Sequence record: NC_105788.1
Length of the DNA: 49,689 nucleotides
Direction: 5' to 3' (one strand)
Source of the DNA: a phage
Shown: piece by piece, positions 10,952 to 31,353 of the stretch
Numbering within the stretch: position 1 is the first letter of the stretch
How the letters are laid out: the number at the start of each line of letters is the position of its first letter
Made by a program: the position numbers and the translations under genes
The notes under the pieces: generated by a model
The model's input: the letters and a program-made list of their open reading frames with translations, nothing else
Databases searched by the model: none
What the model was told of the DNA's origin: nothing

Positions 10952-11364
10952 TTCATTAATTCGTAAATTGCGACCTTGAATTGCTCAAATCCGTATGCGA
11001 CGGCAGGGAAGCCGCCACGCTCACGGACCTTTCGGAGAAATTCCCTTTGCTTGTCGCTGACTGGTGACGCCTTTCCTTTGCCTGACTTATTAACCCGCTT
11101 AAGTTCGATTGCTGCAAACGGGTATCGTGAGTTAACACCAATCAGGATAACAAAGTCTGACACGCCTTTAAGTAATCCGGCCTGCTCATCCCTGAGCGCC
11201 GATGTGATTGTTTTTTCACCTTCATTGACAGTGTGCCAAAATAGAAGGTGAGGAAAATTGTATTTCAGCCAGGATACACAATCCACCTGATGAGCGTCCT
11301 CCTTTCTAGTGTCGCTTGGATCTCTCTCGTAAAATTCTAAATAATCACCTTTGTCTGTAATCAT
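10948..11364 (-). CDS. VRR-NUC domain nuclease
   Basis: PD-(D/E)xK-like arrangement (GVSDFVILIG ... AAIELK); GGAGGA RBS inside helicase 3' end. Confidence 0.6.
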   Translation of the reverse strand: MITDKGDYLEFYERDPSDTRKEDAHQVDCVSWLKYNFPHLLFWHTVNEGEKTITSALRDEQAGLLKGVSDFVILIGVNSRYPFAAIELKRVNKSGKGKASPVSDKQREFLRKVRERGGFPAVAYGFEQFKVAIYELMK

Positions 11365-13379
11365 TCCGGGATATCCTCCATACCAAAGTCTTTTCGTGAG
11401 ATAATATCTTCTTTCTTCTGGTTGCGACGATGAGTTACGCGCACCGGGTGAGCAATATGATGTGAGTATTGCAAAATCTTGATGGCGTTCTTCATTCCGA
11501 TAAAGTATCGGCGCATTTTAGGATCTGATACGTGTGGCAATACACCTTTAGTTTTCCATAGCGTACCGCAAATCTTAGAGTCAGACTCGGGGAAGAATTT
11601 TTCATACGCCTTGAACTCATCACCATCATCGTTAATAAGAGTGTATTTGTATATTATGCCTTTCTGGTTTTTGGTTAGCGTAACCTCAAAATTCTTTACT
11701 TCATACCAGTCATTCTTGGTGTACGCCTTACCGGATAACTTCAGGTTGGGATCGACAAGCGAAACATCACAACAACGACAGACTCGAGCCACAACGTCAT
11801 TCTCTGCACCGCATCCTTTAACAAGGATTTTCCCGGTACGTTCATCAACCTGGTCCTCGCAAATCTGAGAAGTCCAGAAATAATCGCAACGTTCACCATC
11901 AATAACATTAACGCATCGTCGAGCATAGAAGCTATTTACGCAACCGCATTTCGGACATGTTTTCGGATCTTTTCCGTTTTCAAATCGCTTTTGGAATTGC
12001 GCCTGCTCAAGTATCGGATCGAAATAAAGCTGCCCCAGCTCATCCATGGTGCCTGCAAAATCCCACACCAAATGGTCTTGCTTAACCATTCCCTCAGCAA
12101 CCTGCCAGGATTTAAGCAGACGCATACCCCTACCCAAAAGCTGAATCAACAGAGTGAGCGACCCTATCTTGCGGAGTATGACACTGAAATCCCAATTTGG
12201 AACGTTAACGCCAGTCGTGAGCGCCATGACCTGAAAGGTGTATTTAATCTTCCCAGCCCTTACATCGTCCAGAATCTTCTTGCGCGTTTTGGTGTCTGTG
12301 TCGCCAGTGATTATTGCATAGGTGCTTCCTGGAGGCAGTGCCGCAGCCGCCTCTTTACAGTGACGCACCCCCGCGCATGTAATCAGAACCGCGTTACGTT
12401 CTTCAGCCTTTTTGGCGACCATTTGCATGATTCGCTGAGTAAGAGATTTATCATGAAGGATCTCATCTTCCATTGCCTTCATATCTTTCTCTGCAAAGTC
12501 CTGTACGCCGTCCTCGCTTGATGCCTTGAACTTATCCAGGTCGTAGTGTACGCCGTCAGTCGAACCGAATATCGTCGGCACAACAGAGCCAAACTCAATC
12601 AGATAGTTTGTGTCGATATCAGTTACGCGCTCACGCCAGAATCCTAACGCATTTGGATTCTCCACCAGAATCGGAACAACGCCCCTAAATTCAGATCCTG
12701 TCATGCCAAATATTCTGAGGTCATGCCCGTGAATCTCTTTACAGCGACGCATCATCTCCATGATTACGATCGTGTACTGGCTTCGCTTAGTTCCAAGTAA
12801 AGGTTTCCCATCATTACCAATCAGAGGAATCTCCCCGTCCATAATAATTTTCCCTTTCTCGCCCCTCATCTGCTCCATCGTTTCTTTTCCTTCGATGGCT
12901 TGAGCAAGGTCTTCCCAATCCACCTGGTGACATTCGTCGATCCCAATTACATGCGGGACAAAATCAGCCAACTCATTGTCGAGGCCATTTGCAACCGTAC
13001 CCTCAGAGCCAACCACGATCGGGAAGTAGCAGGACTTGATTCCAAGCGATGCTGAGAAGATGGAGTTCGTTACCCCGAAGTTGTCGATCTCCTCACTATC
13101 CTGATCGACAATCTCACCCTGTCGGGCAAGCACAAGCATTTTCAGGCCCATTTTTTGACACTGCTTTGCCACCATAGCGAATATGATTGTTTTACCCGCA
13201 GATACTGACGCTTTAACAAAGAATGGATGCTCGTAATTTGACAGGCGTTTTGCGATCTCGGCATAAGCAACAACCTGATACGGATAAGGAACGACCTCAC
13301 CGACAGTGAATCGTTCTTGAGTGCGTTTTATATAGTCCTCGCCAAGTAATGCGATTTGCTTCTTGATGTTAATTGTCAC
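11361..13379 (-). CDS. SF2 DNA helicase with C-terminal Cys-rich (zinc-binding-like) region
   Basis: Walker A SAGKT, DExH box IDECHQ, C-terminal CPKCGC..C..C cluster; start codon appears to be GTG. Confidence 0.75.
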   Translation of the reverse strand: MTINIKKQIALLGEDYIKRTQERFTVGEVVPYPYQVVAYAEIAKRLSNYEHPFFVKASVSAGKTIIFAMVAKQCQKMGLKMLVLARQGEIVDQDSEEIDNFGVTNSIFSASLGIKSCYFPIVVGSEGTVANGLDNELADFVPHVIGIDECHQVDWEDLAQAIEGKETMEQMRGEKGKIIMDGEIPLIGNDGKPLLGTKRSQYTIVIMEMMRRCKEIHGHDLRIFGMTGSEFRGVVPILVENPNALGFWRERVTDIDTNYLIEFGSVVPTIFGSTDGVHYDLDKFKASSEDGVQDFAEKDMKAMEDEILHDKSLTQRIMQMVAKKAEERNAVLITCAGVRHCKEAAAALPPGSTYAIITGDTDTKTRKKILDDVRAGKIKYTFQVMALTTGVNVPNWDFSVILRKIGSLTLLIQLLGRGMRLLKSWQVAEGMVKQDHLVWDFAGTMDELGQLYFDPILEQAQFQKRFENGKDPKTCPKCGCVNSFYARRCVNVIDGERCDYFWTSQICEDQVDERTGKILVKGCGAENDVVARVCRCCDVSLVDPNLKLSGKAYTKNDWYEVKNFEVTLTKNQKGIIYKYTLINDDGDEFKAYEKFFPESDSKICGTLWKTKGVLPHVSDPKMRRYFIGMKNAIKILQYSHHIAHPVRVTHRRNQKKEDIISRKDFGMEDIPE

Positions 13380-27024: not shown

Positions 27025-29898
27025 TTAGCCTCCTGTTTTTTCCTGAATGTAATTATAAACCTCACCGCCCTGCGAACAAGACTCGCGAATCATTTTTTTG
27101 AACATCATTTCTACCCCCTGAGAAATCCCCCTCGGATCTGATCCGTTGTCAACTCTCACCTCCATGCCGCTTACATCAACGACCGTTCCACCTCCTGAAT
27201 GGTTTACCACCTTTGGCGCCGAGTTTGATGCGTTGAATCCAGAGGTTGCCACACTACCCGCTGCGGCAGCAAGTGATACAGCGGCCCCACCGGAAGATAA
27301 AGATCTAAAAACAGAAGTGGCAGGCGCAGGGGTTGCCTGTGATGCCGCAGAAGCACCAGACGACGCCCCTCCAGCAAAGCTCCACGTCTTACCGCCCATC
27401 ATGCCTGAGATCGTATTGAAGATTACCATCTGAGCAATCATCTTTATAATCATGCCGATGATATTTTTCGCAAAGTCCTCAAAGTTCGCTTTTCCTGTGG
27501 TCAGAAATTGAACCATCATATCTGACATTCCGTTAAGGGCACTTGACGCGATCTCGTTAACATTGCCGTACATATCCATTGCTGCATCACCGTAATCAGC
27601 AAAAGCACTTTCAGCACCTGCCAACCAGTCAGCTCGCTTGGAATCTTCCGCAGCGTAGTAATCATTTTGCGCCTTAATCATGTTCTGAAGTTTCTCGTCT
27701 CCTTCGCTGCCACCGGAGTTGATGTAATCAGTGGTGATTTTAGCTAGTTCAGCTTGTCGTTCCATGTCGCGAGTACTAAGACCTCGTGAAGCGTTAAGCT
27801 GTTCCGTCGCCGCCGTCATCTCATTGACAAACTTCAGTGATTTGTCGGTAAGTGCGTTCAACTGCTGTTGCTTAACGATCTGATCGCCAATCTCGGCCTT
27901 CTGTTTCGCAAGCTCGACAACTTTCTCCTGACTTGCCAGTAACGCTTTTTCTTCCGCAGACAACTGACGCTTAGAGCTGGCTTCACGAAGAACAGCAATC
28001 GTAGCCTCGGTCGTAAACAGCGCCTTTCTCTGCGCGGAAAGTTTTTGACCGATCTCCTTATGCTCCTGCAATACCTTAAGTTGAGCCTTGAGTGAAATTA
28101 ACTCCTTGTCGAATTGCTCTGTCGGTGAGCGCACAATTTTCGACTGCTTATTTCGTTCTCGGTTTCGCTTCTCGATCTCTTCTGCTTCTTTCCTTATTGC
28201 TTCCTTAGTTTCCTCGCTGTACTGCTTTTCAAGAGTGCGACGCTGCTTCATCGCTTCAACGTATCCCATCTCGCCTTTTTCTACTCGAGCGTTAATAGCA
28301 TCAAGCTCTGAAGCCAACTGGTCGTAGTTGTCGCGAGAACTTTTTACGATGTTCTCCTGCTCCTTCAGAACATCAGCGCCGAAATCACTCATACCAGGAA
28401 GAGACTGTGTAGCCTTAATCGCAGAGGCAATAAAGTTTGAGATGTATTCGTCACCTTTCGCAAGAATCATTTTTACCTGAATCACTGTACCCTGAACCAC
28501 ATCAATAATCAGGTTTAGCGCCCCAAGTGTATGATCACCCACCCATCCCCACGCGTCCGAAGCCCATTGTTTAATATCGTTCCACATTTTTTCCAGATGG
28601 GTAGCATTATCCGCTATTGACTTCATTCGCTTTTCCATTACGTCGGCGAATAATTTCGTTGCTTCAGATACTGCCTCAGTTTCTCCTTTCGTCCGGCTTA
28701 ATGTATCGATATAGGTAAGCTGCCCTTTTTCAAGGAAATTATATTGCTCATTTAACTTCTTCAGACCTTTTACCGGATCGCTTGCGATTTTGTCGAACTC
28801 AGAAATAATTTGACTTGCTGATTTTCCTGTTGACGCTGACCACTCTGCGGTAGCCTTAGTGATGTTCTGGATCTGCTCGCGGGTGTACTTACCAGAACTT
28901 GCCAACTCCGTTACAATCTCGCGAATACTCCCAATGGTTGAGTTACTTGTCTGCGCGATCTTTTTAGACACTGAATCAAGATCTTCAGCCGTAACACCTG
29001 CATAACCGCCAGTCTCAATAAGCGCATTCTGAATATCAGTTATTGACTTGTAAGAGTCATAACCAGCTTTCGCCAGAAGACCTAACGAACCAACAAGAAC
29101 GCCAACACCTGCCGTGACCGGATTAATATAGCTAAGCAGTACTTTAAACGTATTACCGACACCGCCGAACGAGTCCTTGATCTGACCACCTTGCTGGATG
29201 GCAACCAGCCATACAGGCATACCGGAGGCGAGAGATGTTACGACGTCAGTGATCTGTGCCGGAAGCATTCTCATAGCCTGCTTATATTCCCCAGCGCTGA
29301 TACCTGCCGCATTCATTGCTCGCCCCTGCTCTTTCAGCTTTGCGATTAGTGGTGCTGCCTCATTCGAAAGTCCAAGCTCAGCCGCTTTCAGCTCCATCAA
29401 TTCAGCATGAGTCTTGCCGATCGCGTTAACTTGACCATTCAGGGCATCCATGAACGCCTTGCTTCGTGCTGCCGCCTGCTCTTTTGCTTTCGCTTCCTGC
29501 AATGCCGCCTGACCTTCTTCCGTAAGCATAGCCCGGCTGCGAGCAAGTTTTGCGTTTTGCAGATCCAGCATTTCACCCAAACGGAAAAAAGTCTCATCTG
29601 GAACGACTCCCTGCTGCCAGAGTTTATCAAGCTGCTGAGATGCAATCTTCAACCTTTCCATTTTTGATACTGTAGGATCGATTGCCTTCTCCACGGCCTC
29701 ATACTCTTTTCTCTGGCGCCTGAGTTGTTCAGCGTGTTCTTTGGCCTTCTGTTTTGCAACCTCTGACTCATTGATTAAAGAACCCATAGAATCAGCGGCC
29801 TGGTCGTTGGCCTTTGAAAACTCTTTCAGTGACTTGACGGCGCGCTGCACTGTTGACACATCAACGTCAAGCGACAGACCTGCTACCTTATCAACCAT
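27025..29898 (-). CDS. tail tape measure protein
   Basis: 957 aa, extensive coiled-coil and Ala/Gly/Ser-rich C-terminus; downstream of G/G-T; start at internal ATG with GGGGG RBS. Confidence 0.85.
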
Positions 29899-29914: not shown

Positions 29915-29936
29915 GAAAAAACCGCCAAACGGCGGC
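29915..29936 (-). terminator. intra-operon hairpin plus T6 between G-T and tape measure genes
   Basis: CCGCC-GTTT-GGCGG + T6. Confidence 0.45.
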
Positions 29937-30571
29937 TTAGTTGTTTTGCTTAGCAATCATTTCAAGCGCTTTCGCTTCCATGATCCTAACGTCCTGCAAT
30001 GCCAGTTCTTCATCTTCTATTTTATAGATTTTGAACAACATAGGCAAAACATTATAGTCAAGGCCATAAGCTCCAGCGCCTGAACTTCTCCACTGAGTGA
30101 GCATTGACGTAAAAACATTCCACGCCTTCACCATTTCAGCATCGCCGATTATCGTTTCCGGTTCCTCATCTTCATAGTCAGAAAGGCTGAGGCCAACCGA
30201 TCTTAATTGCTCTTCTGTCGGCGGTTTCTGATATAACAGATAAACCGCCCTTTTTAGTTTTTTGCGCGGTGTCCGGCGAGCGCCTTGATGTAAGTTGCCG
30301 TCAGATTGTACGCTGCGGAAGGATAATACTGTACCAGTTTACGCGTATTCTCTTCGTTAAATTCTTCTTCCAGATTCCAGCCTGACGCGATCTTAGTAAT
30401 GAAATCGCTATCATTCATTTCGCCCTGCTTCGCATACATATCTTGCACTTCTTTACTGGAAAGGTGGCGCACTGTAAAAATAATAGTCGCATCCTCACCG
30501 TTTGGCATGGTGAACGTAACCGGAAGTTTGAAGTCTGGAAGCTGGCCCAACACGAAATTGAATTTAGCCAT
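29937..30571 (-). CDS. tail assembly chaperone G-T fusion produced by -1 programmed ribosomal frameshift
   Basis: -1 frame is open from the slippery site to stop at 29937; arrangement identical to lambda G/GT. Confidence 0.65.
30254..30571 (-). CDS. tail assembly chaperone (lambda gpG-like)
   Basis: 105 aa between major tail and tape measure genes; ends ...RAKN-stop with slippery heptamer in last codons; ACCAATCAGGAG RBS. Confidence 0.75.
   Translation of the reverse strand: MAKFNFVLGQLPDFKLPVTFTMPNGEDATIIFTVRHLSSKEVQDMYAKQGEMNDSDFITKIASGWNLEEEFNEENTRKLVQYYPSAAYNLTATYIKALAGHRAKN
30257..30263 (-). other. -1 frameshift slippery heptamer A_AAA_AAC
   Basis: zero-frame codons GCA AAA AAC TAA; canonical X_XXY_YYZ site 1 codon before G stop. 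Confidence 0.7.
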
Positions 30572-30592
30572 AATGTTTCTCCTGATTGGTTG

Positions 30593-30612: not shown

Positions 30613-30684
30613 TTAATCGAATAAAGTTGATAAGATGATTTTACAGAAATGAATAAGGGGGCGCAAGCCCCCTATGGATGGTAT

Positions 30685-31353
30685 TTAAGCACCAGGCGAT
30701 GCCAGAGTGGAGGAAATGAAAGTAAAGTCACCTTTCAGGGATACGGCGAGTTCCACCGTTTCCATTTCGTTAACCTGCGTGGATGGGATATCGTTAAACG
30801 ACAAGATGCCAGCCCACATACGCATTTCGCTCGCTTTCGGCACGTACATTCGAACCGCTGTTACCTGGCCAGACGAATCCAGCTTGCGCAGAATCGGGTA
30901 GATCGGGTTATCAAATTCGTGCGCGAAAGTGTACGTTAGCGATACCGCAGATTTAAACGTTGGAATCTGCTGCTCTTTATCGTCGGACAAACACTGATAA
31001 GTGTAATACTGCTGCTCGCCGCCGTCCTGACCAATCTCCTGCACGCAAGGGATCTCAGTCCATCCAGTAATTTTTGCGAAGCTCATCGTACCGCCAGCCG
31101 GGAAAACAAGTGTATCAGAGGTGTCAATTCCAGCAAGAGTGATGCTTGTTTCCTGAGCGTCAGTAACAATTAGCACTCGACTAACCATCTTTGCCCAAGT
31201 TGACTGAGTTACAATAACGTAATCACCTTTTGCCAAGTCACCCTTAGATGCAACTGTAGCAACAGGATTTTCTGCGTTAGTGACAGCGGTTGCCTCAACC
31301 TCTACCCCTCGAGAGGTTTCCACGAAAATTTGTGCGCCATTTGGTAAGTGCAT
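30685..31353 (-). CDS. major tail protein (lambda gpV-like)
   Basis: 223 aa immediately upstream of G; start at internal ATG with AAGGAG RBS. Confidence 0.7.
   Translation of the reverse strand: MHLPNGAQIFVETSRGVEVEATAVTNAENPVATVASKGDLAKGDYVIVTQSTWAKMVSRVLIVTDAQETSITLAGIDTSDTLVFPAGGTMSFAKITGWTEIPCVQEIGQDGGEQQYYTYQCLSDDKEQQIPTFKSAVSLTYTFAHEFDNPIYPILRKLDSSGQVTAVRMYVPKASEMRMWAGILSFNDIPSTQVNEMETVELAVSLKGDFTFISSTLASPGA

Follow-up and report, generated by a model that had tools for sequence, protein, structure and literature searches.

We analyzed a 49,689-nt stretch of phage DNA (record NC_105788.1; hereafter the window, meaning the whole stretch) and found that a low-efficiency −1 ribosomal frameshift on the heptamer A_AAA_AAC, at the end of a minus-strand tail gene, very probably yields two proteins, a 105-aa tail assembly chaperone (G) and a 211-aa fusion of G with the product of the −1 frame (GT). 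The region is 100% identical to that of Escherichia phage CLB_P3 (OL770108.1; Tunavirus, Drexlerviridae), and the DNA of the locus is 97% identical to that of phage T1. The feature is already known, since the same fusion has been deposited residue for residue for T1. An earlier note on this DNA had proposed the frameshift, and the position of the site, the protein families, the fused protein profile, the lack of a start codon for T and the conservation in relatives all agree with that interpretation at the level of sequence.

As listed in Table 1, the genes for the major tail protein, G, T and the tape measure protein follow one another in this order on the minus strand. The 3' end of the G gene reads ...CAC CGC GCA AAA AAC TAA, and the ending GCA AAA AAC TAA that the earlier note had reported was confirmed in the minus-strand ORF 30571..30254. 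The register of A_AAA_AAC in the G frame (30263..30257) is that of an X_XXY_YYZ slippery site, also as claimed, and the heptamer directly adjoins the G stop codon TAA (30256..30254). Translated from 30263, the −1 frame holds 108 sense codons, in agreement with the approximately 110 codons previously noted; it ends in ...IAKQNN and is closed at the expected place by TAA 29939..29937, which is separated by 38 nt from the ATG (29898) of the tape measure gene. The span first assigned to the whole feature, 30254-30571, takes in the G gene and leaves the T extension (29937..30253) outside. The T1 record annotates a ribosome-binding site at the same place as the Shine-Dalgarno (SD) sequence of the window, and there it is common to the G and GT coding sequences (CDSs).

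Table 1. Features of the G-T region, in window coordinates.
Feature	Position	Strand	Basis or remark
Major tail (tube) protein gene	30685..31353	minus	ORF; T1 homologue annotated 'major tail protein'; immediately upstream of G
Terminator-like GC-rich hairpin and T-run	30656..30673	minus	Between major tail gene and G
Shine-Dalgarno sequence AGGAG	30579..30583	minus	Strong; 7 nt 5' of G start codon
G gene, 105-aa tail assembly (tape measure) chaperone	30254..30571, including stop	minus	ORF, Pfam and identity with T1
Slippery heptamer A_AAA_AAC	30257..30263	minus	X_XXY_YYZ register of the G frame
T segment	29937..30256	minus	−1 frame extension; 106 post-shift codons and TAA stop
Predicted hairpin, candidate frameshift stimulator	30220..30249	minus	Begins 7 nt 3' of the heptamer
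Terminator-like hairpin	29919..29938	minus	Overlaps T stop; upstream of tape measure gene
Tape measure protein gene	27025..29898	minus	ORF, ATG 29898; annotated so in T1 and CLB_P3

In-frame X_XXY_YYZ heptamers are common, and 58 of them were found in the window ORFs of at least 80 aa. The −1 frame stayed open for more than 100 codons past the 0-frame stop at only two of the 58; the G site is one of these, and it is the only one of the two with a stop codon abutting the heptamer. This rarity, together with the conserved position of the site across related loci (below), indicates that the G site exceeds chance. The heptamer T_TTC_CCG at 11829 (ORF 11479..11868, plus strand), with a −1 frame of 230 codons, was rejected as a frameshift candidate, since the ORF that carries it is an antisense shadow ORF lying inside a 672-aa minus-strand ORF (11361..13379).

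Pfam matches were judged by the curated gathering thresholds, and both halves of the fusion scored above them. G is a full-length match to PF08748 (Phage_TAC_4; E 2e-37, 128.6 bits with a cut-off of 21.1, profile positions 1-124 of 124), and T matches PF08809 (DUF1799; E 2.9e-12, 47.1 bits with a cut-off of 26, profile positions 4-80 of 80). On the PHROG family phrog_17368 (213 positions), G aligned with positions 1-107 and T with positions 107-212, head to tail, so a family built from fused products exists. Phage lambda gpG matches PF06894 (Phage_TAC_2) and gpT matches PF06223 (Phage_tail_T), and the G and T of the window match neither. A comparison by hhalign of an alignment of 12 G sequences with lambda gpG showed no similarity (probability 0.05%), and a search by sequence for relatives of solved structure gave only chance-level proteasome matches (E ~0.08). 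The pair is arranged like lambda G/GT and, judged by these profile comparisons, is outside lambda's sequence families. The earlier claim that the locus reproduces the G/GT arrangement of long-tailed phages held for the gene order, the slip site and the missing start of T; the sequence families differ from those of lambda gpG and gpT. Since G and T have no detectable similarity to the lambda proteins, their functional roles are assigned by positional analogy.

A comparison with annotated G/GT pairs of T1-like phages had been suggested as a check, and its outcome favored the frameshift. The T1 record (AY216660.1) carries at the homologous place CPTT1_038, a 'tape measure chaperone' (AAP49960.1), and CPTT1_039 (AAP50000.2), a two-piece joined CDS named 'tape measure chaperone, frameshift product', which is identical to the fusion read from the window. 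The separate G and T translations of the window are likewise 100% identical to T1 G and T. An exact-sequence look-up of the 211-aa fusion with the junction ...AKK-LKRAV... returned AAP50000.2, 'tape measure chaperone [Escherichia phage T1]'; the fusion with the tandem-slip junction AKN-L was absent from the protein collection, in which only the AKK-L version is deposited. T1 shares with the window the heptamer, the stop codon and the flanking terminator, and nothing of substance differs between them, the few differences being synonymous, such as CCG/CCA at the 3' edge of the hairpin. The joined CDS of T1 is itself a bioinformatic annotation, and the searchable literature yielded neither protein nor ribosome-profiling nor reporter data that would show the fusion directly for T1-type phages.

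When the fusion was searched by tblastn, 1154 phage records were matched, and at least 80% of the query was covered at one place in 1101 of them; among the matches listed, this coverage came in two pieces (two frames) except for two partial matches. For closer comparison we assembled 93 loci with 73 distinct junction contexts, consisting of 12 annotated records, 80 IMG/VR loci and the window. T lies in the −1 frame in 92 of the 93 loci, and the position of the slip site is conserved in the same number; with the coding substitution pattern described below, this speaks to the conservation of the −1 frame in relatives, on which the earlier note had let its proposal depend. The junction reads NNA AAA AAC followed by a stop codon in 68 loci (Tunavirus, Tlsvirus, Warwickvirus, Hanrivervirus, Nouzillyvirus, Guelphvirus, Dhillonvirus and one unclassified Klebsiella Drexlerviridae phage), GCA AAA (GTY or GCC) TAA in 17 loci (Webervirus), GCA AAG GTC TAA in 5 loci, CAA AAG CCT TAA in Klebsiella phage HJK1 and CGG GGA AAC TGA in Ralstonia phage Dina (25-35% protein identity). 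The slip sites of the loci lacking A_AAA_AAC are at the same position and have the form A_AAA_G, A_AAG_G or, in Dina, G_GGA_AAC, and the −1 frame and the slip site are retained down to approximately 25-35% protein identity. No codon separates heptamer and stop in any of the 68 A_AAA_AAC loci or in Dina, and the reduced slip sites lie one codon before the stop (L023, L024 and L091-L110, Webervirus; L072-L076; L027, HJK1).

The sole exception among the 93 loci was L059:1005-1290 (IMGVR_UViG_2974632794_000001). This locus has AAAAAC for AAAAAAC at the slip site and TTTT for TTTTT later in T, and a deletion joins T to the tape measure gene; most likely these changes arose from sequencing or assembly errors at homopolymers and do not represent a true variant. 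Outside the 93-locus count, the reading frame of G appears broken in a relative of 82% identity (L018:1700-1830; IMGVR_UViG_2974611450_000001), and 6 nt (TCGAGA) are inserted immediately 5' of the conserved ...CACCGCGCAAAAAACTAA junction; this is either an indel error or a real variant.

In the mechanism that we propose, most ribosomes would stop at TAA 30256..30254 and release the 105-aa G, and a small fraction would slip back by 1 nt on A_AAA_AAC (30263..30257), with tRNA-Lys re-pairing from AAA to AAA and tRNA-Asn from AAC to AAA. The slipped ribosomes would then read CUA AAA AGG GCG... in the −1 frame and add 106 more codons, giving the 211-aa GT; a candidate peptide spanning the fusion junction is …AGHRAKNLKRAVY. 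The downstream hairpin, possibly together with the abutting stop, would probably stall the ribosome and so determine how much G is made relative to GT. On the model of lambda gpG/gpGT, the tape measure protein would be coated by numerous G and a few GT molecules, the T domain (DUF1799) would recruit the major tail protein and thereby let the tail tube polymerize to the correct length, and neither G nor GT would be expected in the virion. That the shift occurs, how efficient it is, what the hairpin and the stop codon do, and which partners the proteins bind are all inferred in this way. A_AAA_AAC is reported to shift far less readily in E. coli than A_AAA_AAG does (PMC5009743), so the efficiency may be low, which is consistent with a low GT:G ratio; in lambda this ratio is 1:30 (PMC5009743).

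The alternative that fares best is also a −1 ribosomal frameshift and differs in its sub-mechanism, and we consider it unlikely as compared with the tandem slip. According to this alternative, either the P-site tRNA-Lys slips alone on A_AAA, or tRNA-Asn slips with the stop codon, whose decoding is slow, in the A site (a 'shifty stop'). A slip of tRNA-Lys alone, before accommodation of Asn-tRNA, would produce the junction ...AKK-LKR and not ...AKN-LKR, while the junction HRAKNLKRAVY is expected from the tandem slip or from the shifty-stop variant. The comparative data lend the alternative some weight: the second slippery triplet is missing in Webervirus (GCA AAA GTY TAA), in the GCA AAG GTC group and in HJK1 (CAA AAG CCT), and a Lys codon preceded by A (A_AAA or A_AAG) is the invariant element in the enterobacterial relatives, which shows this codon to be the conserved core. 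The constant abutment of heptamer and stop noted above points the same way, as does the re-pairing of tRNA-Asn, because of which A_AAA_AAC performs comparatively poorly as a tandem site in E. coli (PMC5009743). However, where the full X_XXY_YYZ heptamer is present it is strictly conserved, which suggests that its AAC half matters, and Dina has a different yet complete tandem heptamer, G_GGA_AAC. The AKK junction of the deposited T1 product, which would fit a slip of tRNA-Lys alone, is an annotation convention and not a measurement.

The frameshift reading holds that T has no initiation of its own, and the substitutions in the T frame bear on this point. Compared with the window, the T frame showed 2576, 1705 and 4051 differences at the first, second and third positions of codons, respectively, a third-position excess, and the close relative L038 showed 24 synonymous and 2 non-synonymous codon changes in T. 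The coding pattern is already present in the first 20 post-shift codons (446/330/751), and the conserved peptide LKRAVYL.YQKPPTD starts at the very first post-shift codon. No ATG, GTG or TTG occurs in the −1 frame within the first 41 post-shift codons; the first is ATG 30134, the 42nd residue of T, which has no SD sequence 5' of it. This Met is kept in 63 of 82 unique relatives, the other 19 having Thr, Asn or Ile instead, and the relatives have their first start-like codon of the T frame at scattered places. Taken together, the coding signature upstream of ATG 30134, the lack of a start codon and of an SD sequence, and the unconserved Met argue that T is made by frameshift and not by its own initiation. 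The contrary view, that T is a separate small protein independently initiated, for example at ATG 30134 (65 aa), and that the heptamer is incidental, is in our judgment very unlikely. What favors it is that a separate downstream ORF is annotated in CLB_P3 and in many related records. In the CLB_P3 record, which was annotated with RASTtk, G and a truncated 65-aa T ORF (29937..30134, start ATG 30134) are each a 'hypothetical protein', and, unlike the T1 record, it contains no joined CDS. However, the annotated starts of T differ between records, as gene-caller artefacts would, and RASTtk does not annotate frameshifted chaperones, according to the CPT paper.

Slightly less probable still is slippage of RNA polymerase on the A6 run, which would add one A in some transcripts and bring G and T into one frame. 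A one-base insertion in the A-run would indeed fuse the two in frame, and productive transcriptional slippage is known in some bacterial genes (PMC5009743), but efficient slippage of the bacterial polymerase is reported for runs of 9 A or T (PMC5009743), and here there are 6. Moreover, the same G/T arrangement is found with only 3-4 A (Webervirus CAAAAG, GCAAAGG) or with GGGAAAC, which cannot support polymerase slippage, and the A-run is held in the codon register X_XXY_YYZ, which matters to ribosomes and not to the polymerase. Finally, that the heptamer and the open frame are a functionless coincidence, or that a sequencing error has split one gene, is hardly credible despite the abundance of such heptamers in the window: only the G site has a long −1 extension in a real gene, the −1 frame matches a Pfam family, the arrangement recurs in approximately 1100 independent phage records, and its only exceptions are L059 (several homopolymer indels) and L018, so that the breadth of the tblastn matches, the junction contexts and the coding pattern, all at the sequence level, effectively refute it.

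The hairpin predicted at 30220..30249 consists of an outer stem GGCGGUU/AACCGCC, an inner stem UCUG/CAGA and a 6-nt loop; its energy of −16.1 kcal/mol corresponds to z −3.2 against dinucleotide shuffles (1 of 200 as stable) and to z −2.2 against synonymous recodings of the T peptide (1.3% as stable). In many Tempevirinae-type relatives the hairpins reached z −3.5 to −4.8, with none of 300 synonymous recodings as stable. The hairpin is present in Tunavirus and Tempevirinae-type loci; in Braunvirinae/Guelphvirus-type loci and several others the fold is absent (z >= 0), and Webervirus has a different, weaker downstream fold. In a gap-free alignment of 40 sequences, 70% of the cells were paired, compared to 36-48% in slid controls, a weak covariation signal in that few changes are truly compensatory and the −1 slid control scores higher. 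The hairpin is plausible as a lineage-restricted candidate stimulator, which may stimulate the shift. A dnaX-like upstream SD was not found, the best anti-SD duplex in the window having −3.2 kcal/mol, and of 72 distinct contexts only 7 carried an SD-like core of 4 nt at a distance of 6-14 nt 5' of the heptamer. A termination pause at the stop codon, which constantly adjoins the heptamer, could contribute as well. This 'shifty stop' idea reportedly goes back to Weiss et al. in 1987, a paper listed in PMC5009743. It is a speculative suggestion, to which we give a small chance, that through the stop abutment and the lineage-specific hairpin termination and slippage compete in T1-type phages and thereby fix the G:GT ratio, as a 'shifty stop' coupled to release-factor kinetics; such a competition would be distinct from the slip of lambda, which is an internal tandem one.

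The G-T pair is flanked by two terminator-like hairpins. The one between the major tail gene and G has 7 pairs, of which 6 are G-C, followed by a T-rich tail, and the homologue of the one that overlaps the T stop is an annotated rho-independent terminator in the T1 and Shelby records. Lying within the tail block, both may attenuate transcription and in this way set the ratios of tail tube protein, chaperone and tape measure protein. In a more distant relative, Escherichia phage SECphi18 (Dhillonvirus; L026:1059-1380), the tape measure gene is separated from the T stop by two short annotated ORFs of 78 and 252 nt, a layout unlike the direct T-terminator-tape measure order of T1-like phages.

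The G/GT tail assembly chaperone frameshift of long-tailed phages is said to have been defined by Xu, Hendrix and Duda in 2004. In lambda, gpG and gpGT are made by a −1 frameshift at G_GGA_AAG (Levin 1993, Xu 2004, 2013 and 2014, as summarized in PMC5009743); G binds the tape measure protein and T the major tail protein, and the two are needed for assembly and absent from virions (PMC5009743). Across long-tailed phages, frameshifting between G and T is broadly conserved 'despite low sequence similarity' (PMC5009743). Lambda, like the window, has a pair of overlapping ORFs flanked by the major tail gene (V) and the tape measure gene (H), an X_XXY_YYZ heptamer for a −1 shift close to the 3' end of G, and a downstream ORF without a start of its own; the low GT:G ratio and the chaperone role are also alike, in the window as an expectation. 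However, the lambda heptamer lies 5 codons before the G stop, whereas A_AAA_AAC abuts it, the families are PF06894/PF06223 in lambda and PF08748/PF08809 in the window, and the shift of lambda has been demonstrated experimentally, whereas that of the window is predicted from the sequence. E. coli dnaX (A_AAA_AAG) resembles the window in that its heptamer is rich in A, is built on a Lys codon and is decoded by the only tRNA-Lys of E. coli. Sites of the dnaX type are stimulated by a stem-loop or pseudoknot 5-9 nt 3' of the heptamer and by an SD-like sequence about 10 nt 5' of it; the window has a predicted stem-loop with a 7-nt spacer. The window and dnaX differ at the Z position, which is C (an Asn codon) in the window and gives AAG in dnaX, in the upstream SD-like stimulator, which dnaX has and the window lacks, and in the outcome, since the frameshift would extend the protein in the window and truncates it in dnaX. 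Also close to the window is Webervirus, in which a joined CDS is annotated in Klebsiella phage Shelby; its G and T are homologous (~47-50% and ~45-47% identity, respectively), and it shares the gene order, the −1 frame and the terminator after T with the window, but its slip site is reduced to A_AAA_G (GCA AAA GTY TAA), one codon before the stop.

This locus adds little by way of discovery, since the G/GT frameshift of long-tailed phages is textbook knowledge and its identical product is deposited for T1; its practical use lies in annotation. In the RefSeq records of the group, G and T go under the name 'tail length tape measure protein', and the CLB_P3 record misnames the major tail protein 'tail fiber'. 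Mis-annotation is widespread in the T1-related phages, and most of the approximately 1100 related records mislabel the halves or call them 'hypothetical', and omit the joined CDS. The comparative set also provides a natural slip-site series (A_AAA_AAC, A_AAA_G, A_AAG_G and G_GGA_AAC) at one homologous position, with the hairpin in some lineages only, which could be used to measure the determinants of frameshift efficiency in E. coli phages. If the ratio of G to GT is indeed set by competition between termination and slippage, the stoichiometry of the tail chaperones in these phages would be sensitive to the release factor or tRNA status of the host.
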